Source of the DNA: Desulfomicrobium sp.
GTDB taxonomy: Bacteria > Desulfobacterota > Desulfovibrionia > Desulfovibrionales > Desulfomicrobiaceae
DNA: 64,000 nucleotides
Direction: 5' to 3'
Assembly (NCBI GenBank): GCA_040768745.1
Contig: JAXGMI010000002.1
Location: forward strand, 64,001 to 128,000
Position 1 is the stretch's first letter, and the number at the start of each line of letters is the position of its first letter. Below are positions 2,226-15,898 of the stretch, in pieces. Under the pieces are notes generated by a model that saw nothing but the letters and a program-made list of their open reading frames with translations, did not search any database and was not told the DNA's origin. The position numbers and the translations under genes are program-made.

Positions 2226-4450
2226 TCGGCCTCCGCGACACGGGCGAAATCGGCCTCCGCGTGCTGGGCGGCGTCCAGAAACAGGGGCAGAAAGGTCCGG
2301 CGGTCATCCACCTGACACCGCTTGGCGCAGTTCTGGATGCCCCAGTGATCACCCAGAACAATGGCGGTGCGCCGGGCGCGGGTCACCCCGGTGTAGAGCA
2401 GATTGCGGTGGTGCATGAAGGAATGCGCCTTGTGGACCACCACCACGGCGCAGGGGAATTCGGAACCCTGGGTTTTGTGGATGGTGAGCGCATAGGCGAG
2501 CTGCAGGTCCTGAAGGTCGGGCGAACCCTTTTCCATCTCCACCGGCATGCCGTCGAAGTCGATGACCAGGGTGCCGTTCGCGAGGACATCGACCACATAG
2601 CCGATGGCACCGTTCATCACATTCAGGTCGTAATTGTTCCGGGTCTGGATGACCTTGTCGTGCTTGAGAAACGGAGCGCGGCGTCCCATGGCGACCGGCG
2701 GTACCTCGGCGTTCCAGAGCTTGCGCTGGATGAGCCGCTGCAGTTCCTCGTTCAGTTCCTTGGTGCCGAGTGGCCCCTTGTGGGTCGGCGTCAGCACCTG
2801 CACATCCTTGATGATGTCGAACCCCAGGGCGTCGAGCCGCTCCTGAAACAGCTCCAGCAGGAACGAGCGTGCAGCCATCGGGTCGGTGAACTGATCCACC
2901 AGATACCAATCCCGGCATCCGCCCACCGACGCCTCGCTGGTCTTGCGCACCTCGCCCTTGAGAACGGCGGTGCAGTTCTCCTTAAGGACGCCAGCCTGGC
3001 GCACGACCTTGTCGAGGATGACCGTGGGAATGGCGCGTGTCTGGATCAGATCGCGCAGGATGTTTCCCGGTCCCACCGGCGGAAGCTGGTTGTGGTCCCC
3101 GACCAGCAGCACCGTGGTCCGCGACAGGTCGACCGCCTCGAACAAGTGCCAGGCCAGGGACACGTCCACCATCGAAAACTCGTCGACCACCAAGACGTCG
3201 GCATCGATGGGATTCTCCTTGCTGCGCGAGAAACCCTTGCCGTCATAGCCGAGCAGGCGGTGAATGGTGGTGCCGCTGCGACCACTGACTTCCTCCAGGC
3301 GCTTGGCGGCCTTACCGGTCGGCGCGGCGAGCACGACCTCCAGATCACTCTCCTCGCAAATCGTGTTGATGACCGAAATGGTGTAGCTCTTGCCCGAACC
3401 GGCTCCACCCGAGATCAGGCTGATGCTGTGATTGAGGGCCGAGCGGACCGCGTCGAGCTGCTTCTCGTTCAGCGTTGATGCGCAGCGCCGAATCAGGGCA
3501 TCGAGTTTCTTGACGGACTGGAAATGCGGATTGGGTGTTTCGGCCCGGCCGAACAACGAGGCCAGCTCCCGCTCCATGCGGACGATCTCCGGCAGAGCGA
3601 CCACGAAACGTCCGCCGTGGGAATCGCAGGCAAGCGCCTGTTCTTCGATGAGCGCGTCGAGGGCGCTCTCGATACGGACCCGGCTGTCCAGGGCATCCAT
3701 GACCAGCAGCAGATTGGCCTGATCCACCAGATCCTCGTATTCGATCCAACAGTGGCCATTGTCCAGGGCATCACGGACGCAAAACAGCAGACCGGCCCGG
3801 ATACGGGGAACGTGGTCCTTGGGGGTTCCCAGCTTGCGGGCGATCTTGTCGACCTTCTTGAAGCCGAATCCCCGGATCTCCCGAATGAGGATGTACGGGT
3901 CTTCCTTCAGAATATCGAGGCAATTGCCGCCGAGTCTTTCGACCAGGGTGGTGACCTGATGATGGGTCAGGCCGAATGCCGAAAGCCAGGCCATGACGGT
4001 GTTGACGCTACGGTTCTTCAACCATTCGTCACGCAGCCGCTTGGCCGCATCCAGGGGCAGCCGAGCTTTGAGCGCGATGCGCTCGGGGTCATTCAGAAGG
4101 GTTTCTTCAAAGGCGTCGCCGAAACTCTCGACGATCAATCTGGCCTTGGCCGGACCAATGCCCTTGATCTCCGGATGGTTGGCCAGATAGTGGATCAGCC
4201 CCTCCGGATCGAGTTCGAGGTCGTGCTCCATCCCGTCGACCTTGAACTGACGGCCGTATTTGGGATGGGTGGCCCACGACCCGAGCAGGACCACAGGCTG
4301 ATTTTCCCGGGCGAACAAATTGCCCGCGAACTGGACTTCCTCACCGGTCGGGGTGAGCAGTCGGCCTGCGGAGAACTTGGGTCCGGCATAGTAAACGCGC
4401 TCTATTCTTCCCCGGAGTCGCGCCGGGTTACTCTCATTTCTTTTTGGCAT
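2222..4450 (-). CDS. recD2: ATP-dependent RecD2-like (SF1B) DNA helicase
   Basis: HhH (IKGIGPAKA), Walker A GGAGSGKS, DEFSM, VGDHNQL, LAYALTIHKTQGSEF, LLYTGVTRAR; start reassigned to MPKRNES at 4450. Confidence 0.9.
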   Translation of the reverse strand: MPKRNESNPARLRGRIERVYYAGPKFSAGRLLTPTGEEVQFAGNLFARENQPVVLLGSWATHPKYGRQFKVDGMEHDLELDPEGLIHYLANHPEIKGIGPAKARLIVESFGDAFEETLLNDPERIALKARLPLDAAKRLRDEWLKNRSVNTVMAWLSAFGLTHHQVTTLVERLGGNCLDILKEDPYILIREIRGFGFKKVDKIARKLGTPKDHVPRIRAGLLFCVRDALDNGHCWIEYEDLVDQANLLLVMDALDSRVRIESALDALIEEQALACDSHGGRFVVALPEIVRMERELASLFGRAETPNPHFQSVKKLDALIRRCASTLNEKQLDAVRSALNHSISLISGGAGSGKSYTISVINTICEESDLEVVLAAPTGKAAKRLEEVSGRSGTTIHRLLGYDGKGFSRSKENPIDADVLVVDEFSMVDVSLAWHLFEAVDLSRTTVLLVGDHNQLPPVGPGNILRDLIQTRAIPTVILDKVVRQAGVLKENCTAVLKGEVRKTSEASVGGCRDWYLVDQFTDPMAARSFLLELFQERLDALGFDIIKDVQVLTPTHKGPLGTKELNEELQRLIQRKLWNAEVPPVAMGRRAPFLKHDKVIQTRNNYDLNVMNGAIGYVVDVLANGTLVIDFDGMPVEMEKGSPDLQDLQLAYALTIHKTQGSEFPCAVVVVHKAHSFMHHRNLLYTGVTRARRTAIVLGDHWGIQNCAKRCQVDDRRTFLPLFLDAAQHAEADFARVAEAE

Positions 4451-4884
4451 CTCGCGATCCTCCGGTGAAAACGTGTCAGGTACTCCTCGACAAAACGGCA
4501 GGCGGCCTGCCGGTCCGAGCAGAAGTAGACGGGGACACCGAAGTCGACGACGATGGAGGCGACCGTTCCGATCAGCGCATGCGGGTGGGCATCGCTGCGG
4601 TAGCGGCCATCGACCAGATCGCGAAAGTTGCATTCGACAACCACGCAGGCGGACTCGTAGGCGGAGAGCTTTTCCAACTCGCGGTGAAACCGCTTTCTCC
4701 CCCGGATGACGGTGGAGACGAAATCCGTCAGGGATTTGCGCTCCACCGCCACCCGTTCCTCGAGGCCGACCAGCGAGTAATCACCGGCGGGCAACGCCTT
4801 GCGAACCGCCGAAACCTTGTCGCTATCGAAGCTGTAGGGCTCCTGTTCGCGGGTGTCGACGACAACGGTGATCCGGTCCATCAT
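4402..4884 (-). CDS. ERCC4/XPF-domain nuclease
   Basis: VVVDTREQ...GDYS...VERKS motif typical of ERCC4. Confidence 0.85.
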   Translation of the reverse strand: MMDRITVVVDTREQEPYSFDSDKVSAVRKALPAGDYSLVGLEERVAVERKSLTDFVSTVIRGRKRFHRELEKLSAYESACVVVECNFRDLVDGRYRSDAHPHALIGTVASIVVDFGVPVYFCSDRQAACRFVEEYLTRFHRRIARCQKEMRVTRRDSGEE

Positions 4885-5357
4885 CAGAACGGGATCATGT
4901 CGTCCATCGCCGCGCCGGGAGCCCCGGCATCGTCGGCCATGACAATGCGACGGTTGAAGTAGATGTTCTCGTTTTCACCGCGAGTGCGCTTGGTCACCTC
5001 CAGCTTGATGTTGAGAAGCTGCTCGAGGTGGCCCGGCAGGTCGGAGAGCTTCTGAAGCTGCAGCCCGCAGGTGTAGAGGTCCTGCTTGAGCCACTTGATG
5101 TTCTCGTTGCTGGCCATGACGTTGTTGCGCCAGAGCAGACGGCCCTTGTGGGTCGGCGCGAGAATGCGCAGGGTCCACTTGAGCATGGGATTGCCCGAGG
5201 TCTGGGCGCGAGTCAGTTCGACCCGGTCAACGTTGACCTGGTACTTGCCGTCGGGAACGGCCTCGAACTCACGTTCCTCGACTTCGGCGGTTTCGAAGGC
5301 GTCGTCGAACTGCGCCAGGTCGAGGTTGCTGTTGGATTGGTTTTCGTAGTGTTCCAT
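4884..5357 (-). CDS. DUF669-family phage protein (putative ssDNA-binding)
   Basis: VPDGKYQVNV...SGNPMLKWTLRI; acidic SSB-like tail DDMIPF; follows Sak4-like gene. Confidence 0.75.
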   Translation of the reverse strand: MEHYENQSNSNLDLAQFDDAFETAEVEEREFEAVPDGKYQVNVDRVELTRAQTSGNPMLKWTLRILAPTHKGRLLWRNNVMASNENIKWLKQDLYTCGLQLQKLSDLPGHLEQLLNIKLEVTKRTRGENENIYFNRRIVMADDAGAPGAAMDDMIPF

Positions 5358-5369
5358 GGTCGGATCTCC

Positions 5370-6140
5370 TTACTGTTGGGGTTTCGCCGCCGCACTCGCG
5401 GTCGGCTCCGGCTTCGGCCGGGCGGCACTCGCCGCAGCTCCGGCTGCCGTGTTGTTGAACGCTTTCATGAAGCTCGGAAAATCGAGGGGGATGACTTCGG
5501 GGAGTCGGCCGGTGCGGTCACCGGCGTCGTAGTTGGGACTGGGCTTGGTGCGCATCACGCGCTGCCAGACCGGCTTGCCGTCCTCGCCGGTTTTCATGTC
5601 CAGGTCGCAGAACAGGATCAGGTCCACCAGACCGGTGACCAGCTTCCGCGCCTTTTCCGGCAGCGTCGGCACGATGCGGGTGTGTTTGCCGGTCCGGGTC
5701 TCGATGTCCCGCTCCTGGGAGTGGGAAATCAGGATCAGCCCGTAGGGCAGGAAGGCGAGCTTGTTGATGACGCGCTGGAACTCGTTGTTGATCAGCGCGT
5801 AGCCCTTGCCGTAGCCCAGGTCGGATTCGTGCTCGATCTTGAATTTCTTGCAGACGTAGTCCGAGCACATCTTGTAGGCGTTATCCACCGTGTCGACGAC
5901 GATGGTCTTGAACTCGTGCTTGCCCTCGGCGATCTCCGCGCAGGCCTGTAGGAGGTCGTCCCAGCAGGTGATCGGGGTCTGGAACACCTCCAGGGCGTTC
6001 AGGCCCGGCTCGGTCGCCAGGAACAGTGCGTCATCGGCCTTGGAGCACCAGGTGCTCTTGCCGATCTTGCTCGGGCCGTACACCAGGGCGGTGAGGTCCG
6101 AGAGCGTGTGTTTGGGTTTGCTTTTGGTCTTGGGAAGCAT
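5370..6140 (-). CDS. AAA_24 / Sak4-like phage recombination ATPase
   Basis: LVYGPSKIGKST Walker A, TIVVDTVD Walker B, LILISH. Confidence 0.8.
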   Translation of the reverse strand: MLPKTKSKPKHTLSDLTALVYGPSKIGKSTWCSKADDALFLATEPGLNALEVFQTPITCWDDLLQACAEIAEGKHEFKTIVVDTVDNAYKMCSDYVCKKFKIEHESDLGYGKGYALINNEFQRVINKLAFLPYGLILISHSQERDIETRTGKHTRIVPTLPEKARKLVTGLVDLILFCDLDMKTGEDGKPVWQRVMRTKPSPNYDAGDRTGRLPEVIPLDFPSFMKAFNNTAAGAAASAARPKPEPTASAAAKPQQ

Positions 6141-6166
6141 GGCTTCGTCTCCTTATGGTTGGGATT

Positions 6167-7183
6167 TCAAAACACCGGAGCGGCGTCTTCACCGGCTCCG
6201 TCCCGCAGCTCTTCGTGCGGGGCGATCCGTTGGAAATGGTTTTCGATGACGTTGGGGTTGCCGCCCGAGCGGCAGAGCTGGAAGTAGGCGCAGGGCCTTC
6301 CGTACTGGAAGCAGTAGCTGGTGTTGCGGTAGAAGGTGTCGCGCCGACGGGCGTCGAGCATGGCCTTGGAGAGTTCCCACAGCTCCGCCCGCAGTTCCTC
6401 GAACTGGTCGCGGGAGATGTAGAGCACCTCGCGATGAAACATGCCCGGCTCGAGGTACTTTTCCTGGAGCCGTTGCTGGAAGGTTTCGTCGTCCTCCGGC
6501 AGCTTGCGCTTGGCGCTGCTCTTGCCGGTTTTCGACTTGGCAATCAGCTCCGCCCGGCGGGCCTCGAATTCGGCTTCGGTCTCACCCTTGCCCTGGCGCA
6601 ACTTGGCCTTGACCAGGACGTTGTAGATGATGCCGCTGACCGTGATGCCGAGGGTCTGCTCCAGGTACCAGGCGTAGAGGATGATCTGGAAATCGGTCCA
6701 CAGCCGCTCCAGGTAACTGGCGTCGATCTGCGAGGCGGTTTTGTGTTCCAGTAGGAAATACTGGCCATCCTGACGGACGATGCCGTCCACCTTCCCGGCG
6801 AGAATGAAACTGCGCGAGGTCGCCCCGGTCGCCGGGTTGACGATGGGACCTTCGAAGGTTTTCTCGAGCGCGACGACCTCGAACTCTTCGGCCGGGTAGT
6901 GTTCCGCATAGGCGCTCATCATGGCCCGGGCGAGATGCCAGTCGGCCTGTTGATGGTCGTCCTGCGCCCGGTTCGGATAGGTCCGGTCGATGTGGTCGAG
7001 GACCTTGGCCAGATTCCGCTCGCCGTGCCAGCACTCCAGGCAGTCGTGGATGACCGAGCCGAAGGCCAGATTGGGGTCGCGCTCGAGCGGCACCAGCTCG
7101 TCGATGTAGCGCCACTTGCAGGCCATGCGGCAGTTGCGGAACAGCCGCCACATGGAATAGGTGGTGGTCATCAGCTCGCTCAT
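6167..7183 (-). CDS. PD-(D/E)XK nuclease superfamily protein (RecB/Cas4-like)
   Basis: FGSVIHDCLE, GKVDGIV...LLEHKT, QIILYA, C-terminal C..C..C cluster; start MSELMTT at 7183. Confidence 0.85.
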   Translation of the reverse strand: MSELMTTTYSMWRLFRNCRMACKWRYIDELVPLERDPNLAFGSVIHDCLECWHGERNLAKVLDHIDRTYPNRAQDDHQQADWHLARAMMSAYAEHYPAEEFEVVALEKTFEGPIVNPATGATSRSFILAGKVDGIVRQDGQYFLLEHKTASQIDASYLERLWTDFQIILYAWYLEQTLGITVSGIIYNVLVKAKLRQGKGETEAEFEARRAELIAKSKTGKSSAKRKLPEDDETFQQRLQEKYLEPGMFHREVLYISRDQFEELRAELWELSKAMLDARRRDTFYRNTSYCFQYGRPCAYFQLCRSGGNPNVIENHFQRIAPHEELRDGAGEDAAPVF

Positions 7184-7515
7184 ACCGCCACCCCCGCTTC
7201 GGCGGCGGGCGCTGCGCGATGCTTGGAGGCACAGGCGCAACCCGACGGCTGGGTACGTTCGATCAGGACCGAGCGTTCGCCGTATTCCTTGGTGGCGAAG
7301 CCGGTGAAAATGCGGGCGAGGTCGCTGCCGACATCGGTGGAGGCGTCGATCACGCAGGTGCGTCGGGCCTTGTCCAGATTGAACCGGCTCTCCATCCGCA
7401 CACGGGAACGGCCATGCAGGCTTTCGACGGCCAGCATCGCCAGCATGAAAGTGTCTTCCAGTTCCTGGGCCGGGACCGACTCGTCAAAACGGTACTTGTA
7501 GGTGTCGTGAGTCAT
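7180..7515 (-). CDS. Hypothetical protein, first gene of the replication operon
   Basis: ATG 7515 preceded by AGAGGAG SD; stop overlaps next start. Confidence 0.7.
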   Translation of the reverse strand: MTHDTYKYRFDESVPAQELEDTFMLAMLAVESLHGRSRVRMESRFNLDKARRTCVIDASTDVGSDLARIFTGFATKEYGERSVLIERTQPSGCACASKHRAAPAAEAGVAV

Positions 7516-7584
7516 GGTTGAACTCCTCTTTTGTTCAGGTTCTGATTTCCGAGGCCCCGGATAGCCGCACCATGCGGCACGGTG

Positions 7585-7622
7585 CTTACTTACCGGAGGC
7601 GGAGCCGATGCGTCGGAGATCA
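7585..7622 (-). promoter_or_regulatory. Putative promoter for element-encoded sigma factor (copy 1): TGATCTCCGAC-N16-CGGTAAGTAAG
   Basis: Same bipartite motif and spacer as 12088-12125; lies upstream of the replication operon. Confidence 0.55.
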
Positions 7623-8204
7623 CAGGTAGTCCTCGAGCCCGGCCTCGCGGAACGCGTCCCGGAGCTTGCTCAGCCGGTCGTAGAGGGTGGTTCTGGGAAT
7701 GCCCATTTCCCGGGCGACTTCGGCCATGGTGCTGTCGTGCAGGCGCAAGCACAGATCCCGGAGCTCTTCCGGCAGCGAGGCGATGGCCTGGCCGAGATCC
7801 ATGCGGATCTCATGGGCGAGGCGCTCTCTTGTTTCGCGTGTGCCGCCCCCAAGAGAGCCTTCGCTATCCAGGAAGTCGATCCGCTCGGTGCTGTCGCCCT
7901 CACCGTTGTCGAGGGGTTCGTTGAGTGATGTTTGGCAGAGCCGCCAGTCCCGGCATTGGGCGAACCGGGCCTCCAGAATGGTGGAGATGTGACGTTCGAC
8001 GATCCGGGCCATGAAGGTGGTCTTCTTGGCCTTGGCGGGATTGAAATGCCGCATCCGCTGCAGCAGATCGATCATCAGTTCCTGTTCGAGGTCGGGTCTG
8101 TCGTCCTCGGTGAATCCGGCCTTGCCTACGAGTTGACGTGCTTTGTGCCGAATGAGGTCGGCGGCATACTTGTCGATGCCGTCGTAAGAATTCTGTGAAA
8201 CCAT
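7620..8204 (-). CDS. Sigma-70/ECF-like RNA polymerase sigma factor
   Basis: Region-2-like DLEQELMIDLL...FMARIVERH and region-4 HTH LPEELRDLC...TMAEVAREMGIPRTTLYDRL. Confidence 0.75.
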   Translation of the reverse strand: MVSQNSYDGIDKYAADLIRHKARQLVGKAGFTEDDRPDLEQELMIDLLQRMRHFNPAKAKKTTFMARIVERHISTILEARFAQCRDWRLCQTSLNEPLDNGEGDSTERIDFLDSEGSLGGGTRETRERLAHEIRMDLGQAIASLPEELRDLCLRLHDSTMAEVAREMGIPRTTLYDRLSKLRDAFREAGLEDYL

Positions 8205-8379
8205 CGGGGCCTCCTCGGAGCGAGGAGGAGGTCCGCGTGGGTGTCGGCACGGGCCAGATCACAGGACAAAGCTGTCGCGTGGGCGAAGGGGTCGCAGGTA
8301 CGCCGCCAATTGCCGTATTCGGCTCGGCGACACCCACAACAGCCTCCGCCATGCGTCCAGCTTGTTGTCCAGTGTCTAA
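8205..8379 (-). ncRNA. Candidate structured cis-regulatory leader RNA, copy A (5' UTR of sigma gene)
   Basis: 10-bp stem GUGGGUGUCG/CGACACCCAC (8328-8337 with 8237-8246); hairpin CCUCCUCG/CGAGGAGG over the SD; homologous to 12161-12288. Confidence 0.55.
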
Positions 8380-8399
8380 GGGTTCAGGTCGTTACGTGT

Positions 8400-8726
8400 T
8401 CAGGCTGCCCGTTCCTCGATGCGCATCAGGAACGGGAGACCGTGCTTGATCTCGAGCAGGCAGACTTTTCCGCTGCCCATCTGCGCGAGGTGCTCCAGCA
8501 GCGCCACGACCTCTTGCTTGAGGATGAAGTCATCCTGGTCGCGCTCGGGCCGGGGACCGCTCTGTCCGCCCAGCTTGATCTCGCGCTCGATGACCGTGTC
8601 AGGGGTGAGTTCCGGCTCGCCGTCGCGGACCGGAATGTTGGTGATGCGGCCGAAGTTGATGTCCTGCATCAGCTCGATGAGTCGCCGCTTCGGTGGGGTG
8701 AGATGTGCTTTGTTGACTTGTGCCAC
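8400..8726 (-). CDS. Small hypothetical protein
   Basis: GTG start at 8726 with AAGGAG SD; VAQVNKAHLTPPKRRLIELMQ...ERAA. Confidence 0.7.
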   Translation of the reverse strand: MAQVNKAHLTPPKRRLIELMQDINFGRITNIPVRDGEPELTPDTVIEREIKLGGQSGPRPERDQDDFILKQEVVALLEHLAQMGSGKVCLLEIKHGLPFLMRIEERAA

Positions 8727-8785
8727 TGCCAGTCTCCTTGTTCGGAAGTTCTGGCGCGCCCGGTGGCCAACCCTGTGCTGACCAA

Positions 8786-8838
8786 TAAAAAACGCCGGAT
8801 GTCGCGCCTTCAAAGCTGAAGGGGCGACATCCGGCGTC
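8786..8838 (-). terminator. Long GC-rich hairpin followed by U-tract (terminator/attenuator-like)
   Basis: Minus strand ACGCCGGATGTCGC...GCGACATCCGGCGT-TTTTT. Confidence 0.6.
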
Positions 8839-8893
8839 GTGCATCACGACAAAGAGCGTCGTGGGAAATTTTTTTAAACTTTTTTTGCCTGGG

Positions 8894-10159
8894 CTATCCG
8901 ATCACGGGCTTTGTTTCCCATGATATGGATTCGGAGGGCTGATATCTCATCTCGCCACCGAATTCCAGTGAAGACTCAAGGTGTTCTGCAAAGGCAGTCA
9001 TTCTGGCATCCTTGAGATTCTTCAAGGTGCGACGAACGGCCTTGCTGACATTATCTCGTGGCTTTCGAAGGGGATCGTTCGCGTGCCTCAGTTTTCCACC
9101 TGGCCCTATCATTGCCTTTACTTGAGAAAGGAGCATCTCCCGATTCTCATGTAAATCATCGAGACGTGATAAATCGGAACATTCGCGGGAATTTTCTATT
9201 TCTTGATCGATTCGGTTCAATTCGTTTCTGATTTCAGCAGCGGCCTGGTAATCGCCAACTTCCAATCCGCTGGACTCGAGCGCCTTTCTCGTTTCCTCGT
9301 CCAAAGTACCTCCGTGGTAGAGATCCAGCACCGAGATATAGCGGCCAGGTGCGGCAAGCAGGAGGGTGAGATATTCGACACCCTTTTGCCTCTCAAATGG
9401 GACTGATTCCCCACCTTGGAATCGAATTTGCCATCTGTCTCCGCATTGCCGGAAAATATTTGCCGGTAAAGGATCTGTAGATGCAGCAAAATGGTTATCG
9501 GGAAACAATATTCGGAATGGCGATTCATTCCGTATCCGCTTAAGGCGGCCGCCTTCCTGGAAGGCAACTTCCTCGCAAAGTGCCATAAACAGTGCAGCTC
9601 TTTGATTCATGAGGCGTTCAGCGCTTCTGCTTAGCAGTTTTCGAGTCGGTGCGAGCAAAACGAAAGGGTTCTGGTTTTCTAAACAAAGCTCACGGACGGT
9701 TTCAGTCATATCGTCCTTTTTCTCTGGGAGCGTCAAATAGACCGGAAACACTGTGCCGGTAGAAGGTAGAAAGTCGCCCAATCGCCAAGTATGGCTCAGG
9801 ATAGGAATAGGCTCTTCGCGGTGCTGAATGTCGAGTGCTCTGCATATCGCCTTATTGACGGCCGACTGTTTGAGCCTGTAGATGAAAGTCTGTTGCCGGA
9901 CAAGAGGAACCGCCCCAGCTTCCTTCTCCTGGCAGACGGCTACGATTTCGGAGTCCGAATGCACAACGACCTTGCGTGGGCATCCCAGTCCACAATCGGT
10001 TGGACAATCCACAGCAGTCGCGTGATTCTTGGTTAGCTGAAGAAAGTGGTCCCGAAACAACGGATACCGATCCCAGCCGGAGAGCGCGTGATCCCAATCG
10101 AACAGCGCCGCCGACTTTCCAGGCAGTGCTTCCAGGAACTCCCAGACAGGGTCATTCAT
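8894..10159 (-). CDS. Hypothetical protein: N-terminal Cys cluster, C-terminal putative DNA-binding effector domain
   Basis: 421-aa ORF; CPTDCGLGC...C; C-terminal WQIRFQG...KGVEYLTLLLAAPG...ISVLDL...R.NVSKAVRR...HLESSL; visibly AT-richer than flanks. Confidence 0.75.
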   Translation of the reverse strand: MNDPVWEFLEALPGKSAALFDWDHALSGWDRYPLFRDHFLQLTKNHATAVDCPTDCGLGCPRKVVVHSDSEIVAVCQEKEAGAVPLVRQQTFIYRLKQSAVNKAICRALDIQHREEPIPILSHTWRLGDFLPSTGTVFPVYLTLPEKKDDMTETVRELCLENQNPFVLLAPTRKLLSRSAERLMNQRAALFMALCEEVAFQEGGRLKRIRNESPFRILFPDNHFAASTDPLPANIFRQCGDRWQIRFQGGESVPFERQKGVEYLTLLLAAPGRYISVLDLYHGGTLDEETRKALESSGLEVGDYQAAAEIRNELNRIDQEIENSRECSDLSRLDDLHENREMLLSQVKAMIGPGGKLRHANDPLRKPRDNVSKAVRRTLKNLKDARMTAFAEHLESSLEFGGEMRYQPSESISWETKPVIG

Positions 10160-11318
10160 CCAGATTCCCTCTGTTCCCCGTAATGAAGCCGCGCAAAAAG
10201 AGCCAACGTTCCAGGATTACGGAGTCATCGTCACACCTGAAGCTTGCCCTGTTCCCTGAACTAATAGTGAGCGACCTTGGCTTCTTAACTTCTTTAAATT
10301 TCACATAAAAACTAGCCTGTGTAATTCGTCCATGTTGGGGAAACTGAAAGCCTCGATCTCGGAGTGAAGCGAAAAAATCCTCAGATCTCCTGATTTCCTT
10401 GTCTTTGTAAGCTCCTGCGTAAGAGAGCTGAACTTCTTTAAGCTTTACGTATTCAAGGCCATCAACATCCTCACACGATAGCGATTCTTCTCCCACCGTG
10501 CGCAATGACTCTAAATTAAATTGGCTTCTCTGGCTGAAAAAATTCTCATCACCAAAAAGATGTTTTCCAAACATCTTTCGATACAGTTCCTTTTCTCCTT
10601 TCGTTACTGCATGCATTCTTATTTCGCCAATCAGGGGATTGTATATGAGAACATCGAATTTCTCTGGTCTGAAGTATTGGCTCTTAGACTTGCCAGATTC
10701 GATAACGGACTCACGATTGAAAGAGCTGCCATGCCTAACTACGATCCATATGTAGTCATCCTTAGAAAATATTTTCACTTTGGAATATTTGCCTTTTCGT
10801 TTCTTGGCAAACCATTCATCAAGGTCGTTTTCCAACGCGGTTATTCTTTCTGAGGATGGAATTGTGAAAACTGGCAGAGGAGTAACCACCGTTTTGAAAT
10901 ATTCGAATGAGCGTTTATTGAGAGGCAATAGTTCAGCGATTACTCTTTCGATGATGGATTTATCCTTCATCCAAACCTGAATCGCAAGATCAGCAGGAGT
11001 GGCGGTTTCCTCAATCTCGGTGTCGAGTTCTGTCCCGTATATTTCTGCCTGAACTGCTTCAAACCCTTCTTGAGTCGAGACCTCGTTCACATAATACAAT
11101 GCCTCTGCCAAATCGCCCGGGGTCGAATTGTCCGGGGTCAATAAAACGTGACTGAGCTCGTTGTAATCCAGGCCATCTTCCTCCTGGATTGGTGGCAACT
11201 CTACGCCGCGAGCTGAAAAATAGGCGGCATGAGGCTCCAGAAAGGCAATGAGATGCTTCCTGTCGATTCGCCGGAGCATTCCCGGCTTCGAAAAGCGGCG
11301 TAGGGTGAATGATGCCAT
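10152..11318 (-). CDS. Hypothetical protein (388 aa)
   Basis: Long ORF with GAGGAG SD; overlaps the next gene by 8 bp; AT-richer than flanks. Confidence 0.75.
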   Translation of the reverse strand: MASFTLRRFSKPGMLRRIDRKHLIAFLEPHAAYFSARGVELPPIQEEDGLDYNELSHVLLTPDNSTPGDLAEALYYVNEVSTQEGFEAVQAEIYGTELDTEIEETATPADLAIQVWMKDKSIIERVIAELLPLNKRSFEYFKTVVTPLPVFTIPSSERITALENDLDEWFAKKRKGKYSKVKIFSKDDYIWIVVRHGSSFNRESVIESGKSKSQYFRPEKFDVLIYNPLIGEIRMHAVTKGEKELYRKMFGKHLFGDENFFSQRSQFNLESLRTVGEESLSCEDVDGLEYVKLKEVQLSYAGAYKDKEIRRSEDFFASLRDRGFQFPQHGRITQASFYVKFKEVKKPRSLTISSGNRASFRCDDDSVILERWLFLRGFITGNRGNLDE

Positions 11319-11363
11319 AAGTTACTCCTCTGTTTTGTCGTTACTCTTCCATATCTGTCTCGA

Positions 11364-11987
11364 TCAATTCCGTTTCCATCCAACGATCTTGCCCAGCACG
11401 CGAAGGTCATCCTCCGGCCTGACTCGGATCTTCCGTACCTCCGGGTTCTCGGGCACCAATTCGATAAGCTCGTCTTTGATTCTCAGCCGTTTCACGGTCA
11501 CTTCGTCGTTGAACAGCGCTACAACGATGTCTCCGTCCTCGGCGATGGGCTGCTGCCGCACGATGATCAAATCACCATCGTTGATACCGGCACCGACCAT
11601 GCTGTCACCCACCGCACGGAGTGCGAAGTGCTGACCGGAACGAACGACGTCCGATTCGACCAGTACTTGGCCGGTGACGTTCTCTTCCGCCAGGATGGGG
11701 CAGCCAGCTGCCACCATACCCACAACAGGTACTGAAACCAGGGAGGCAGCCATCTCGCTGGGACGGCGGGCGACGGCAATGCCGCGAGACTTCCCGTCCT
11801 CTCGCTTCAGGTATCCCTTGCGCACTAGTTGGTTGATCCGGTCGTGGGCACTCGCCGGGCTGATTTCAAAGATCTCGCTCAGTTCCTTCACCGTTGGAGG
11901 GAAGCCCTTGGCATCGACAAAACGACATATCGCTTCGAGCGTTTTCCGCTGCAACGGCGTTATCTCATCCGTCTTCGCTTTGCCCAT
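11364..11987 (-). CDS. lexA: LexA-family self-cleaving repressor (element-borne)
   Basis: wHTH GFPPTVKELSEIF; cleavage site VAAG; catalytic GDSM and TVKRL; start MGKAKTD at 11987. Confidence 0.85.
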   Translation of the reverse strand: MGKAKTDEITPLQRKTLEAICRFVDAKGFPPTVKELSEIFEISPASAHDRINQLVRKGYLKREDGKSRGIAVARRPSEMAASLVSVPVVGMVAAGCPILAEENVTGQVLVESDVVRSGQHFALRAVGDSMVGAGINDGDLIIVRQQPIAEDGDIVVALFNDEVTVKRLRIKDELIELVPENPEVRKIRVRPEDDLRVLGKIVGWKRN

Positions 11988-12042
11988 GGCGTCTCCATTT
12001 CTGTTGAAAGACAAAAAGGCGCAATGCGCCAGCAAACCCTAA

Positions 12043-12071
12043 TAATATAAACCTGATGCATATCAGGTCAA
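12043..12071 (-). promoter_or_regulatory. Sigma70-type promoter of lexA overlapped by palindromic operator ACCTGAT-N4-ATCAGGT (12051-12068)
   Basis: Minus strand TTGACC-N16-TATATT (or N18-TATTAT); the palindrome fills the spacer. Confidence 0.6.
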
Positions 12072-12087
12072 GAAATAATCTCACACC

Positions 12088-12125
12088 TGATTTCCGACAC
12101 TTCCATGAGCCCCTCGGTAGGTAAG
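12088..12125 (+). promoter_or_regulatory. Putative promoter for element-encoded sigma factor (copy 2): TGATTTCCGAC-N16-CGGTAGGTAAG
   Basis: Matches 7585-7622; upstream of the DUF2924-recombinase operon. Confidence 0.55.
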
Positions 12126-12160
12126 GCCTGAAGAAAGCCGGTTTGAAACCGGACGAGCAG

Positions 12161-12288
12161 TTAGAAACCAGATAACCGACCAGAGGCGGAGCTGAGGCGG
12201 TTGTGGGTGCCATCGAACGCGCATCCCGACCGCCACCGTTTTCTGGCATCCACACCATCCAGCCCCCCGGTCCCACCGGAGGTGTTCG
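12161..12288 (+). ncRNA. Candidate structured cis-regulatory leader RNA, copy B
   Basis: 11-bp stem UGUGGGUGCCA/UGGCAUCCACA (12202-12212 with 12244-12254); CCGGU/ACCGG hairpin overlapping GGAGG SD; homologous to 8205-8379. Confidence 0.55.
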
Positions 12289-12531
12289 ATGTTGGATGTA
12301 CAGGAAATGAATGATGTACCGGGGACGGATGACCTTGGCGAAAACGGCAAACCCGGCCGCCTGTCGGGTGAGGCGAGGCTCCAGTCAGCCGCCTCCATTC
12401 TGGCCACGGCGATCCTGCGCCGAAAGGCAAAAAACGCATGTGTGGGCAATGAGTTAGAGGTTTTCGAAGATTCTTCCCCTGTGCTCGGAGAAGGACTTGA
12501 TTCATTGCCGGAACAGAGCATTCATTCATGA
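12289..12531 (+). CDS. Small hypothetical protein
   Basis: ATG with GGAGG SD at 12278-12282; precedes DUF2924. Confidence 0.55.
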   Translation: MLDVQEMNDVPGTDDLGENGKPGRLSGEARLQSAASILATAILRRKAKNACVGNELEVFEDSSPVLGEGLDSLPEQSIHS

Positions 12532-12565
12532 CAACTCGTCCGGAAACCAAAATAAGGAGTTGAAA

Positions 12566-13090
12566 ATGAATGAGTTACAGAACGCCGCCACCGGCGGCAA
12601 GATCCAGGACCGAACCCGAAACTCAGTCCTTCGGCAGATGGCCCTGCTGCAATCCATGTCCCTGGAGCAGCTCCGGGAAAAATGGCTCGACCTCTACGGA
12701 GAAGAGCCACCCCAGTACAAGAAACAATTCCTCATCAAGCGGCTGGCCTATCGCATCCAGGAGCTTTTCTACGGCGGGCTGTCCGAACAGGCCAAGGTCC
12801 ATCTCCAGCAGGCCGCCAAGGAGGACCCGGTCGCCACTGTCAATCGACGCATCCCAGAAGAGCGGAAATCGAACGAAGCGATCCTGCCCGGGACCAGACT
12901 GGTGCGGGTCTGGAACGACCGGCGCTATGAGGTGATCGTCCTTGCCGATGGCTACGAGTTCGAAGGCCGCACCTTCCGGTCGCTCAGCGCGGTGGCCAGG
13001 GAGATCACCGGGACCAGGTGGAACGGCAAGGTCTTTTTCGGACTGAAGAAGGTTTACGGCAGAAAAGCCGAGGGAGGTTCGGATGCTTGA
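12566..13090 (+). CDS. DUF2924 domain protein
   Basis: LREKWLDLYG..PP, LAYRIQE..YGGL, PGTRLVRVW, SLSAVAREITGTRWNGKVFFGL; AAGGAG SD. Confidence 0.9.
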   Translation: MNELQNAATGGKIQDRTRNSVLRQMALLQSMSLEQLREKWLDLYGEEPPQYKKQFLIKRLAYRIQELFYGGLSEQAKVHLQQAAKEDPVATVNRRIPEERKSNEAILPGTRLVRVWNDRRYEVIVLADGYEFEGRTFRSLSAVAREITGTRWNGKVFFGLKKVYGRKAEGGSDA

Positions 13091-14669
13091 TAACAGCAAT
13101 GTCGCGCCGGGCAAAAACAAGACCCTGCGCTGTGCCATCTACACCCGCAAGAGCCACGAGGAAGGTCTCGAACAGGAGTTCAACTCGTTGGATGCGCAAC
13201 GGGAATCGGCGGAACACTATATCGAAGCCCAGAGGATGCGTGGCTGGACGGCTCTGCCGGATCGCTACGACGATGGTGGATTCTCGGGTGGAAACATGGA
13301 GCGCCCGGGGCTGCGTCGCCTGCTGGCGGACATCAATGCCGGGAAGATTGACGTGATCGTGGTCTACAAGGTCGACCGGCTGTCCCGCTCGCTGCTGGAC
13401 TTCATGAAGATGATCGACCTCTTCAACGAGAAGGGTGTCAGCTTCGTCTCGGTCACCCAGCACTTCAGCACCACCGACCCCACCGGACGGATGTTTCTCG
13501 GCATCCTGATCACCTTCGCCCAGTACGAGCGGGAGGTCATCGCCGAGCGCATCCGGGACAAGGTGGCGGCCGCCAAGCGCCGGGGGAAATACTGCGGCGG
13601 CGTACCCATTCTTGGATACGACGTCGACCGGGACAACAAGAAGCTGCTGGTCAACCCGGATGAAGCCAGGACGGTGCAGTACATCTTCCGCCGATTCATC
13701 CAGATCGGCTCGGCCAAGAAGCTGGGCCAGGAATTGAACGAACAGGGATACCGCACAAAAGCCTGGACCACCAAGAAAGGCAAGGTTCGCGAGGGCTCAG
13801 AATGGAATACAGGCCACATCTACCGGCTGCTGAACAACCGGGTCTATATCGGCGAGATTGCCCACAAGGATCGCAGCTACCCCGGTGAGCACGAAGGAAT
13901 CATCGACCGGACGACCTGGGACAAGGTGCAGGCCATCCTGGAGGACAACAAACCGGTCAAGGTTTCCATGGCAAGAACCAAAATGGTCGCCCCGCTGAAA
14001 GGCGTCATCCGCTGCGGCCACTGCGGATGCGCGATGGGACCGACCTACGCCCGCAAGAACGGCCGCCACTACACCTATTACATCTGCCAGAAGGACAGCA
14101 AGCGGACCGTGAGCCGGTGCCCCCTCAAACGGATTCCCGCCGGGGACATCGAGCAGGCCGTGGTCGAGCAGTTGAGCGCGGTGTTCCGCACGCCGACGCT
14201 GGTGGCCAAAACCTACTTCGCGGCCCGGGACATCGAGCAGGTGGAGCGGGAGCGGCTGTTCAAGCAGAAAGCCCAACTCGAAATGGAGCTGTCGCAGGCG
14301 CGGGAGCAAGCCATCGAACTTATGAAACCCGGCAACGATCAGCCGGGCAAGACCGAGATGCTCACGACCGTCAACCGCCAGGCGGTCGAGCTCTCGAAAC
14401 AACTGACGCACGTGAGCGAGCGATGCAGAGCCTACCGGGGGAACAACATCACGGAACAGGACGTTTCGGAGGCCTTCCAGAATGTCGAGGGCTTCTGGGA
14501 GGACCTTTTCCCGGTGGAGCGAAACCGGCTCATCCGCCTCCTGGTGGATAAGGTCGAGATCCGCGAGACCGGAATCGACATGGAGCTGCGCACCAACGGG
14601 CTGACTACGCTCATCGCCGAGCTGGCCGGTCTGGCATGCGAAGTCACCGAACGGAGGGCAAGCCGATGA
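13083..14669 (+). CDS. Large serine recombinase (resolvase + recombinase + Zn-ribbon)
   Basis: CAIYTRKS catalytic Ser, VYKVDRLSRS, CGHCG...YYIC...C. Confidence 0.95.
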   Translation: MLDNSNVAPGKNKTLRCAIYTRKSHEEGLEQEFNSLDAQRESAEHYIEAQRMRGWTALPDRYDDGGFSGGNMERPGLRRLLADINAGKIDVIVVYKVDRLSRSLLDFMKMIDLFNEKGVSFVSVTQHFSTTDPTGRMFLGILITFAQYEREVIAERIRDKVAAAKRRGKYCGGVPILGYDVDRDNKKLLVNPDEARTVQYIFRRFIQIGSAKKLGQELNEQGYRTKAWTTKKGKVREGSEWNTGHIYRLLNNRVYIGEIAHKDRSYPGEHEGIIDRTTWDKVQAILEDNKPVKVSMARTKMVAPLKGVIRCGHCGCAMGPTYARKNGRHYTYYICQKDSKRTVSRCPLKRIPAGDIEQAVVEQLSAVFRTPTLVAKTYFAARDIEQVERERLFKQKAQLEMELSQAREQAIELMKPGNDQPGKTEMLTTVNRQAVELSKQLTHVSERCRAYRGNNITEQDVSEAFQNVEGFWEDLFPVERNRLIRLLVDKVEIRETGIDMELRTNGLTTLIAELAGLACEVTERRASR

Positions 14670-15088
14670 AAATGAAGCCGACCATTACCGTAGCCGACAA
14701 CGGCAACCTGCAGATCCATATCCCGATGCTGATCCGGCGCATGCGCGGCCGCAAGACGGTCATCGCTCCCCAGGCACTGGATGGAGAAATCACCGGAGCG
14801 CAGGAACCGGTGCAGTCCGCCGTCCTCCAGGCGCTGGGAAGGGCCTTTTCTTGGGCCGACATCCTCGAATCCGGCCAGATCAAGTCCATCAGCGAGCTTG
14901 CCCGTACCCTTGACGTCGATGGCTCGTATGTGGCCCGCATCCTCAAACTGACGACCCTGGCCCCCGACATCGTCGAAGCCCTGATCAACGGTGAGGAACC
15001 CAACGGGCTCTCGCTGGCCAAGCTGACCCAGACCTTTCCAGAGGACTGGGCCGAGCAGCGCCGCCAGTTCGGCTTTGCCACCGACTGA
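14666..15088 (+). CDS. HTH-containing accessory protein of recombinase operon
   Basis: SISELARTLDVDGSYVARILKL; ATGA coupling to recombinase. Confidence 0.75.
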   Translation: MKMKPTITVADNGNLQIHIPMLIRRMRGRKTVIAPQALDGEITGAQEPVQSAVLQALGRAFSWADILESGQIKSISELARTLDVDGSYVARILKLTTLAPDIVEALINGEEPNGLSLAKLTQTFPEDWAEQRRQFGFATD

Positions 15089-15114
15089 CGACCGGACCGG
15101 AGACCGCCCCAGAG

Positions 15115-15145
15115 AGCCGACCATCAGCGTCGGCTTTTCTTCTTT
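15115..15145 (+). terminator. Rho-independent terminator
   Basis: AGCCGAC-N7-GTCGGCT followed by T-rich tract. Confidence 0.65.
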
Positions 15146-15444
15146 AGGGGGCAGGAAGCCGGAGTTGACCGCGCTTCTTTTCATGGCCGAGGCGGGCGAT
15201 TTCGAAAAAAACGTCCGGTTGCGGCATCGAACGACGACCTAAGACAACCGCCAAAAATGGCAATCAGCCGCAAACCCATATCAATCAAGGATGTAGCTTT
15301 CCGGACGAGCTTCGGACTTGGTCCGGAGAAAACAGAGAATCAGGGGCCAAACAGAGAAAGAAAGGCGGGAGGATGGGGAGAATCGATGGTGCGAAGAGGT
15401 GCTTTGGAAAGATGTGAAACGGGCGCAACCCCTTTAGAAACAAG

Positions 15445-15495
15445 GGGAAAAAGAAAACCCGTCACCCCGGAGAATGACCCCAGAGAGACGGGTTT
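15445..15495 (-). terminator. Terminator downstream of tmRNA (on the element side)
   Basis: AAACCCGTC...GACGGGTTT stem followed on minus strand by TCTTTTT. Confidence 0.6.
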
Positions 15496-15507
15496 GTCTT
15501 TTCTAAA

Positions 15508-15898
15508 TGGTGGAGCCGGGGAGAATCGAACTCCCGTCCGAGAACGCTCCGCGCAAAGCTTCTACAGGTTTAGTTCAGGTTCTGCTTCTCGCTCCACGGG
15601 TAGCCCCTGAACGGGCTTCCGTGACGCCAGCCTGGATGATGTCTCGCGATCGGCTGTCCAGACAGCGGCTTTTCGCCAGCCTGATGGGGTTTGACACCCG
15701 GATACGGCTTATCAGACATCCACCGCACGGATGTGACGATCTGTGTCGTCATGCAAGGGTTGCCTAGAGACTAGGCGGCCATTGCGTAGTCATAATTGTC
15801 GTTGGCAATTATGTGTGTGCTGGGTTTTAACGAGGACCTCCCAGCGCCTCGACCTGCGACTTTGGCCTCATCATCCCCGTCGAAACCAGGGCGGCCCC
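15508..15898 (-). ncRNA. ssrA: tmRNA, tag peptide (A)ANDNYDYAMAA*
   Basis: 5' GGGGCCG..GGTTTCGACGG; 3' GTTCGATTCTCCCCGGCTCCACCA; tag frame 15806-15771. Confidence 0.97.

Follow-up and report, generated by a model that had tools for sequence, protein, structure and literature searches.

How are the regulators at the control end of a prophage of Desulfomicrobium sp. connected with each other and with the operons they might control? This question is raised by positions 7620-15088 of a 64,000-nt stretch of contig JAXGMI010000002.1 (assembly GCA_040768745.1). The whole stretch is termed the window, its genome of 3.09 Mb is designated G000, and coordinates are those of the window unless stated otherwise. 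A first-pass annotation had described lexA, two genes without assigned family (here u388 and u421), operator-like repeats with a hairpin, a small gene, a structured leader and a sigma factor gene on one strand, with a recombinase operon in divergent orientation, and had interpreted this order as a damage-triggered cascade. All of these elements were present at the places claimed, and comparison of the locus with its relatives suggests that the cascade as a whole is partly supported.

We propose that the region encodes a damage-triggered master switch with four layers, for which a temperate tailed phage would rely on components of its own, and consider the chances of this proposal to be about even. 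In the first layer, LexA would occupy a palindrome in its own sigma-70-type promoter and keep expression of lexA, u388 and u421 low, until host RecA filaments formed after DNA damage stimulate its self-cleavage. In the second layer, the unit of small gene and sigma factor gene has repeats in its control region that are specific for the type of the C-terminal head of u421; these would be the target, in trans, of the u388 and u421 proteins, which would most likely switch the unit on. A leader RNA that hides the ribosome binding site (RBS), or frees it by an alternative long-range helix, would gate translation of the sigma factor in the third layer, and a second copy of the leader would gate translation of the recombinase operon. 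Finally, the sigma factor, which is of the extracytoplasmic function (ECF) type, would direct host RNA polymerase to a phage-type promoter motif in front of the replication, the DUF2924/serine-recombinase and the late structural operons.

LexA and the operator in its own promoter

The LexA-like repressor of the first-pass annotation turned out to be a true LexA with a conserved operator in its own promoter. The full-length protein matched TIGR00498 with 177.7 bits (cut-off 110.95), PF01726 with E 2.6e-14 and PF00717 with E 1.6e-32, and the true start of the gene is the ATG at 11987. The protein contains the sequences VAAG (Ala-Gly), GDSM and VKRL, which we take to be the LexA cleavage site and the Ser/Lys catalytic dyad. 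The gene was the sole TIGR00498 match above the cut-off in G000, and a survey of 31 genomes from this and related genera gave such a match in just 2, the second being G003, which carries the same prophage. The host genome encodes RecA.

The palindrome CCTGAT-N4-ATCAGG is placed between the -35 and -10 boxes of the lexA promoter, and the layout TTGACCTGAY-N4-RTCAGG followed by TATAAT recurs in relatives, distant ones included. The perfect palindrome occurs once in 3.09 Mb. When up to 3 mismatches were allowed, the window operator matches numbered 3, compared to 0.46 expected, and the single perfect one was that at PlexA. We also considered the operator at further phage promoters and rejected this, as no copy with ≤1 mismatch was present elsewhere in the prophage. 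The sole evident output of LexA is therefore its own operon, including u388 and u421. The anatomy of this promoter is directly visible; we infer its function, namely that the phage LexA autoregulates through the operator, to which it is predicted to bind.

A small AATC palindrome in the control regions of some relatives (type A, see below) was tried as a second LexA site and was discarded, since its arms differ in L060, where the LexA operator is standard. In two loci, L023 and L024 (locus positions ~6390-7768), lexA is replaced by genes for a MarR-family protein and an ArsP-type permease; the gene pair following lexA is retained, and the prophages are otherwise near-identical.

The gene pair u388/u421 and its type-specific sites

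Relatives of u388 were encoded in 221 of 234 candidate stretches of GTDB species genomes, and the best 80 loci of these 221 relatives were kept for comparison, with synteny counts made on the 59 loci of at least 10 kb. The host phyla named in the records are Desulfobacterota, Acidobacteriota, Planctomycetota, Nitrospirota, Myxococcota and others. A u421 homologue directly followed the u388 homologue in 55 of the 59 loci and lexA directly preceded it in 43. The small gene followed by the sigma factor gene was present in 42 loci, and all five genes together in 35. Both LexA_DNA_bind and Peptidase_S24 were assigned by Pfam in 12 of 21 chosen upstream open reading frames (ORFs). In the window, u388 and u421 overlap by 8 bases.

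Neither protein matched Pfam, PHROG, PADLOC or NCBIfam, and PADLOC-DB 2.0 (2023) gave nothing at E ≤0.01. At least 201 homologues of u388 were found in a large protein set (E ≤0.001), and all source names among the matches listed were "hypothetical". tblastn searches of isolated phages and of plasmids with u388 gave no match in either, and the ESM Atlas returned unnamed clusters only, together with GAPS4b_N at 0.77, which is under the level that counts.

The window version of the pair has a G+C content of 44-51% (9000-11000) compared to about 60% in the flanks and the genome, while in most relatives the pair matches its flanks; it was probably acquired by recombination from a relative of lower G+C content such as L049. 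G003 has a distant version of the pair in its place. The low G+C content and this replacement suggested a variable cargo or defence insert. This was rejected, as the first proteins of both versions (P0001 and P0003) are homologous (21% identity, E 2e-12; E 0.067 for the second proteins) and the pair is syntenic across phyla. On these comparative grounds, the regulator pair of the first-pass annotation is best described as two conserved core genes and not as cargo.

The C-terminal part of u421 occurs in at least three unrelated forms (alignment A2), and the sites 5' of the small gene vary with this head type. We compared head type and motif for sites within 420 nt of u421 (Table 1).

Table 1. 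Site motifs of the u421 head types and number of loci with each motif within 420 nt of u421. Two type-B loci were under-counted by the pattern; the repeats were present on inspection.
Head type	Site motif	Own motif	No motif	Motif of another type
A	CGAAATTTCG, twice	34	19	0
B	GTC[CT]AGA direct repeats	3	1	0
C (window)	CACGAC-N7-GTCGTG-N3-CACGAC	5	1	0
Unclassified		0	9	0

Displaced loci showed the same association. In 10 rearranged loci, the small gene and the sigma factor gene lie about 5 kb from u421, and the type-A site pair is found directly 5' of the small gene. Two further loci have an insertion of 1.4 kb between u421 and the small gene, and the type-A pair is still directly 5' of the latter. 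The type-A sites are 129-131 bp apart in all 12 displaced loci. A second line of evidence came from the window, G003 and L022: among them, LexA is 93-95% identical, the operator is the same and the small and sigma proteins are 95-98% identical, yet each has a different head and a different motif. The specificity determinant must therefore lie in the u388/u421 block. This covariation links the pair to the control region of the small gene, and the direction of the effect would most likely be activation. All five type-B loci have GCCCTC, immediately preceded by a TAnnnT hexamer, at a distance of 32 nt from the end of the last repeat (L075 by eye), a layout that resembles an activator-dependent promoter.

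The first-pass annotation had noted operator-like repeats and a hairpin in this region. The repeats are the type-specific sites; the hairpin is a strong intrinsic terminator that ends the lexA-u388-u421 operon. The window hairpin (8792-8837) has arms with 95% complementarity and is followed by T6, and in 46 of 49 loci a hairpin with a T-run (-19 kcal/mol or stronger) separated the small gene from the u421 homologue, with sequences that differ between loci. The A-tract element next to the repeats was also considered as a general phage promoter and was rejected, as it has a single site in the genome.

In type-A loci (L062, L053, L060 and others), the small-gene leader likewise forms a conserved structured region. 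The terminator-like hairpin has a loop, GCCGGACC, with complementarity both to GGTCCGG at the small-gene RBS and to an upstream GGTCCGGCGAGACC hairpin. This complementarity suggests that the small-gene leader could act as a further RNA switch in these loci.

Predicted folds of u388 and u421

The AlphaFold2 model of u388 had a mean predicted local distance difference test (pLDDT) score of 81.8. Residues 130-385 covered the whole chain of RdgC (2owl) with Z 12.0 and 223 residues aligned. A search independent of Foldseek gave Z 11.7 (219-223 residues aligned over both searches), Foldseek gave E 1e-5, and the RdgC rows were clearly above the next unrelated rows. By sequence, u388 matched no Pfam family at E ≤0.01, and no RdgC chain appeared at E ≤10 in the profile search of solved structures. 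The model thus predicts an RdgC fold for u388 without membership of the RdgC family by sequence. RexA of phage lambda (8TWQ) was not found in the u388 profile search and was neither among the 50 best fold matches of either search nor among the Foldseek rows listed.

The N-terminal domain of u421 was modeled with pLDDT values of 74-96, mostly >90, in 10-residue blocks up to residue 210. The best fold matches of residues 1-224 were Can2, Cdn1, EcoT38I, VC1899, LlaBIII (Z 6.2-7.0) and SfsA, which are all PD-(D/E)XK nucleases with low Z scores (5.9-7.0); NucS was matched by Foldseek with E 0.02. The near-invariant residues in the 22-sequence alignment A2 are Cys52, Cys60, His67 and Cys76, together with Trp, Pro and hydrophobic residues. 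This alignment contained no invariant or near-invariant Asp, Glu or Lys that could form a catalytic D...(D/E)xK motif. A winged helix like that of OmpR was seen by eye in the type-B head, without Pfam support at E ≤1.

We also predicted the complex of u388 with residues 1-220 of u421. The score of 0.50 (best control 0.00) lends weak support to an interaction: 116 of 157 solved complexes attained this mark, compared to 2 of 215 mismatched pairs, but only 18 of the 157 did so with a score of ≤0.60, as did both of these mismatched pairs. Contacts agreed between runs to ≥92%, and the pLDDT of the partner was ≥84.

A leader RNA present in two copies

Structured leaders had been claimed by the first-pass annotation, and a conserved RNA that hides the Shine-Dalgarno (SD) sequence was indeed present, with a second copy before the recombinase operon; gating of translation by it would be its likely function. 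In copy 1, the SD sequence GAGGAGG (8210-8216) is paired to CCTCCTC (8222-8228), which serves as the anti-SD sequence. Alignment of 21 distinct sigma leaders revealed invariant blocks. In the fold calculated by RNAalifold, ACACCCAC and the CUCCUCC strand are the partners of the 5' core (31 pairs, of which 6 show compensatory changes). In an alternative fold, the hairpin CCUCCUCGG/CCGAGGAGG hides the SD sequence. This fold was 90.9% paired, compared to 47-59% in slid controls, and 14 cells were changed on both sides, a value reached in 0 of 500 shuffles.

A profile of the leader core built from relatives (nhmmer) found exactly two significant copies in the genome, on the minus strand at 8324-8375 (E 6e-14) and on the plus strand at 12167-12214 (E 4e-4). 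For the recombinase leaders (n = 19), RNAalifold gave 22 pairs, 6 of which show compensatory changes; they comprise an inner stem with CG 9, AU 6 and UA 2. A simple repeat search did not reveal the duplication, and pairwise local alignment gave a score of 28 compared to a shuffle maximum of 26. Rfam yielded no leader match at E ≤1 in window positions 7100-12700, and only tmRNA and tRNA at gathering scores in the whole window. The conserved leader is a structured RNA common to the sigma and the recombinase leaders. Since the leader hides the SD sequence, translational gating is at least as likely as antitermination.

The sigma factor and a phage-type promoter motif

The sigma factor matched TIGR02937 with 56.4 bits (cut-off 42.9) and was just under the Pfam cut-offs for Sigma70_r2 (22.8 versus 24) and r4_2 (21.1 versus 25.7). 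For the small protein encoded upstream of it, Pfam gave only DUF2292 with E 0.04-0.13, which is not significant.

A promoter motif of the form TCCGACA-N15/16-CGGTAAGTAA is found ahead of the replication, integrase and late operons. A strict search with TCCGAC[AG]-N12-20-GTANGTAA gave 7 matches in the genome, all of which were inside the prophage and co-oriented with its genes. Two of these precede the replication operon and the recombinase operon, and the other five are found upstream of, or inside, the gene blocks for portal, methyltransferase/head, tail and baseplate. When relatives were scanned with 1 mismatch allowed per box, the motif was present 6-23 nt past the sigma factor gene in 39 of 45 and 218-541 nt upstream of the DUF2924 gene in 53 of 56 relatives; the boxes were conserved, and the spacer was not. 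The motif itself is thus well documented, and co-occurrence points to the phage sigma factor as its reader. Promoters of this kind had been postulated for both effector operons: they are present there, the list was incomplete, as the motif also precedes the late structural operons, and a role of the sigma factor as reader appears plausible. Conservation of the cis-elements across homologous islands had been named as a check of the cascade; operator, leader and promoter motif were kept, and the repeats follow the head type.

Weighing the cascade against other readings

A number of observations weigh against the proposed cascade. lexA was undetectable in 13 of the 59 loci of at least 10 kb; L024 has the genes for MarR and ArsP at this place. 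As the swapped block is contiguous in many loci, plain linkage may account for some of the covariation, to which there are also exceptions: L083 has a type-A head and the small gene and no type-A motif, and L049 has a type-C head and no motif nearby. None of the head types matched a DNA-binding family at Pfam E ≤1, the window head was modeled at low confidence, and a promoter of the small gene was not located in the window. The link between motif and sigma factor consists of co-occurrence alone, and the motif is unlike textbook ECF promoters. In type-A relatives, the two palindromes 129-130 bp apart flank the A-tract region, which fits repression by DNA looping too. Finally, when near-identical phages differ by the joint exchange of a regulator and its sites, as is the case for heteroimmune lambdoid phages, this is a classic mark of an immunity repressor and not of an activator.

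The last two observations would be accounted for if u421, together with u388, were the true immunity repressor of the small gene-sigma unit, with two operator sets connected by a loop, and LexA merely tuned the level of the operon. The type-B loci, which have two pairs of sites about 100-114 bp apart, would fit as well. We nevertheless regard this as unlikely: loss of LexA after damage would then raise the level of the repressor, so that the SOS sensor of the phage would oppose induction, the type-B layout looks like that of an activator-dependent promoter, and the window has a single cluster of sites.

The order of repressor, two genes and terminator also invites a comparison with the lambda operon cI-rexA-rexB. 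LexA might be the maintenance repressor of a lambda-like lysogeny operon, and the two downstream genes might correspond to rexA-rexB, be made in the lysogen and exclude phages or stabilize the switch, with no link from LexA to the sigma factor. The low G+C content of the pair and its exchange between near-identical phages are in line with such a role, and so is the RdgC fold that u388 shares with RexA, for which PMC11077077 reports this fold, non-specific DNA binding and a bias to lysis. We think that such an operon is improbable here, as a palindrome in the operon's own promoter implies low expression in the lysogen and no second perfect operator is present near a lytic promoter. Moreover, u421 is a soluble, modular protein of 421 aa, unlike RexB, which PMC11077077 describes as a small membrane protein, the site motifs track the head type even at a distance of 5 kb, PADLOC gave no match, and RexA was absent from the 50 best fold matches.

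It is very improbable that the pair serves in DNA transactions, for example by assisting recombination or replication restart or by modulating RecA, instead of regulating transcription: the RdgC-like ring and nuclease-like folds, and E. coli RdgC, which is reported in PMC11077077 to reduce RecA activities including RecA-dependent LexA cleavage, would suit such a role, but the 22-sequence alignment contained no conserved D..(D/E)xK and had Cys, His and hydrophobic residues as its near-invariant positions, and the match of head type and site motif upstream of the small gene would be left unexplained.

We retain the damage-triggered cascade as a working model. A more far-reaching version of it is tentative and, in our opinion, rather doubtful. 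In this version, the pair would be a modular two-protein transcription switch, consisting of an RdgC-type ring and a Cys-rich nuclease-fold adaptor with an exchangeable head, that relays the SOS signal to the phage sigma factor, and the leader would represent a new cis-regulatory RNA family that gates sigma factor and integrase, all in a widespread, host-independent phage circuit.

The prophage and its other genes

The features of the locus are compiled in Table 2. The first-pass annotation had considered the region as part of a small DUF2924/serine-recombinase island. It belongs to a full prophage instead: genes for portal, major head, sheath, tube, tape measure, baseplate and endolysin proteins lie to the left of the window in the contig, and tmRNA, tRNA-Arg and host hslVU lie to the right. 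This prophage is myovirus-like, measures about 58 kb and is situated next to the tmRNA gene, and positions 7620-15088 are its lysogeny and early-gene control end. The replication module extends leftward of the sigma factor gene (3-7240) and encodes a PD-(D/E)XK exonuclease, a Sak4-like AAA_24 protein, DUF669 and ERCC4 proteins, a RecD2-like helicase and a primase. The operon layout given earlier had missed the 80-aa ORF (orf80) that precedes the DUF2924 gene and a conserved ORF between the sigma factor and exonuclease genes; the rest of it was correct. For orf80, which could encode a directionality factor, Pfam gave no match at E ≤1.

Table 2. Features of the control region (window coordinates).
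Feature	Position	Strand	Properties
Conserved ORF between sigma factor and exonuclease genes	7180-7560	-	Start codon uncertain; tblastn with L062 ORF 48% identity, E 2e-21
Phage-type promoter	7586-7617	-	TCCGACG-N15-CCGGTAAGTAA; just past sigma stop, ahead of replication operon
Sigma factor, ECF-type	7620-8204	-	194 aa; TIGR02937, phrog_1740 E 7e-25
Leader RNA copy 1	8205-8399	-	195 nt, before sigma; core 8324-8375
Small gene	8400-8726	-	108 aa; GTG start after AAGGAG; conserved partner upstream of sigma
Intrinsic terminator of lexA operon	8783-8837	-	21-nt arms, then UUUUUUAUU
Type-specific repeats	8836-8863	.	CACGAC-N7-GTCGTG-N3-CACGAC; perfect palindrome once in genome
A-tract element	8864-8886	-	AAAAAAAGTTTAAAAAAATTTCC; one genome site (overlapping matches); conserved in control regions of relatives
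u421	8894-10159	-	421 aa; conserved N-domain (1-220) and swappable C-terminal head, here coiled-coil type
u388	10152-11318	-	388 aa; N-terminal helical domain and predicted RdgC-fold domain (residues 130-385)
lexA	11364-11987	-	207 aa; winged-helix DNA-binding and S24 self-cleaving domain; TIGR00498
PlexA	12044-12071	-	TTGACC, 16-nt spacer, TATATT; sigma-70-type
LexA palindrome	12052-12067	-	CCTGATATGCATCAGG; between PlexA -35 and -10; CCTGAT-N4-ATCAGG
Phage-type promoter	12093-12124	+	TCCGACA-N15-TCGGTAGGTAA; ahead of recombinase leader and operon
Leader RNA copy 2	12135-12288	+	Hairpin P0 12138-12152, core 12167-12214, hairpin around SD; heads orf80-DUF2924-recombinase operon
orf80	12289-12531	+	80 aa; first ORF of recombinase operon; start-codon context conserved in relatives
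DUF2924 protein	12497-13090	+	PF11149 E 8e-53; likely start ATG 12566
Large serine recombinase (integrase)	13083-14669	+	Resolvase PF00239, Recombinase PF07508, Zn_ribbon_recom PF13408, all above cut-offs; phrog_95 E 5e-128
150-aa protein	14636-15088	+	phrog_14161 E 3e-56; weak ParB-like matches only

The prophage end adjoins the 3' end of the tmRNA gene (15089-15507, 15508-15898), and homology to the copies in other hosts continues up to about 15578. A search of the left prophage end for a long att repeat matching the tmRNA end was negative, in keeping with a serine integrase. In a search of isolated phages, the portal protein matched only distant Bacillus phages (20-23% identity).

Several loci (L020, L022-L026, L031 and L034) have 96-98% nucleotide identity to window positions 5001-15578 outside the swapped block. 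Their hosts are isolates of Desulforhopalus, Desulfobulbus and Desulfocarbo and metagenome-assembled genomes (MAGs) labeled Omnitrophota and Verrucomicrobiota. The prophage of G003 is identical to that of G000 at 95-97% of nucleotides, and host hslVU is only 83-86% identical between both genomes. Near-identical prophages in several genera, at such a distance of host genes, imply either an unusually broad host range or very recent spread. Contigs of 2.5-4.5 kb in L015-L019 and L035 are 98-100% identical to window positions of about 7.5-12.4 kb and were binned in MAGs from six phyla that are not related to each other; it seems that the exchangeable block interrupts assemblies and that the fragments are then mis-binned. 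The motif scan also revealed by chance a tandem repeat of 363 bp with 23 copies elsewhere in the genome (G000:C1:465205-473191).

Significance

SOS-triggered prophage switches and phage sigma factors are each already known. If the proposed cascade is true, a phage that brings its own sensor, relay, sigma factor, promoters and RNA gate would have compact regulatory autonomy, largely independent of host regulators. Such a self-carried chain may explain the near-identical phage in isolates of several genera: with its own LexA, sigma factor and promoters it could inhabit hosts from various genera of a lineage in which a canonical LexA is present in few genomes. A pair of RdgC-fold and nuclease-fold proteins beside LexA would give a testable function to a hypothetical family with at least 201 homologues and relatives in 221 GTDB genomes, and its role would bear on the function of RexA-like proteins in phage switches. 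A new RNA family would be represented by the leader, which is present twice per genome and has clear alternative folds.

Comparison with known systems

A damage-cleavable or damage-responsive repressor that frees a positive regulator, which then activates structural or transfer genes, is known from SXT/R391 (SetR and SetCD), from pyocins (PrtR and PrtN) and from Bacillus PBSX (Xre and Xpf), and Xpf of PBSX is a sigma-like factor that acts as the positive layer. In contrast to these systems, the repressor gene described here is the first gene of the operon that also encodes the regulator pair, this pair is not a member of any known regulator family, and a third protein layer (the sigma factor) and an RNA layer would be placed on top. 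The GIL01 study reportedly mentions a "phage-encoded LexA homologue". No description of the switch itself was found in the literature, in a search that left most subscription journals outside.

One RNA element in the leaders of two separate phage operons is known from lambda (nutL/nutR) and HK022 (putL/putR). The leader described here likewise occurs in two operons, and differs from these elements in having no sequence or Rfam similarity and in containing a hairpin that hides the SD sequence.

With lambda cI-rexA-rexB (PMC11077077), the locus shares an S24 self-cleaving repressor, two accessory genes and a terminator in one operon, and a first accessory protein with an RdgC-type fold, RexA being reported there to bias the switch to lysis. 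The repressor here is a full LexA with a winged helix and not CI, its operon is on the same strand as the lytic genes, and the second protein is soluble and modular instead of a small membrane protein. At Z 12, u388 resembles RdgC much more closely than RexA does, for which PMC11077077 reports Z 4.4, and it has no sequence similarity to any solved chain. From E. coli RdgC (2owl), u388 differs by an identity of only about 10%, the lack of a Pfam match, an additional N-terminal domain of 130 residues, and its place in a phage operon with an obligatory partner.

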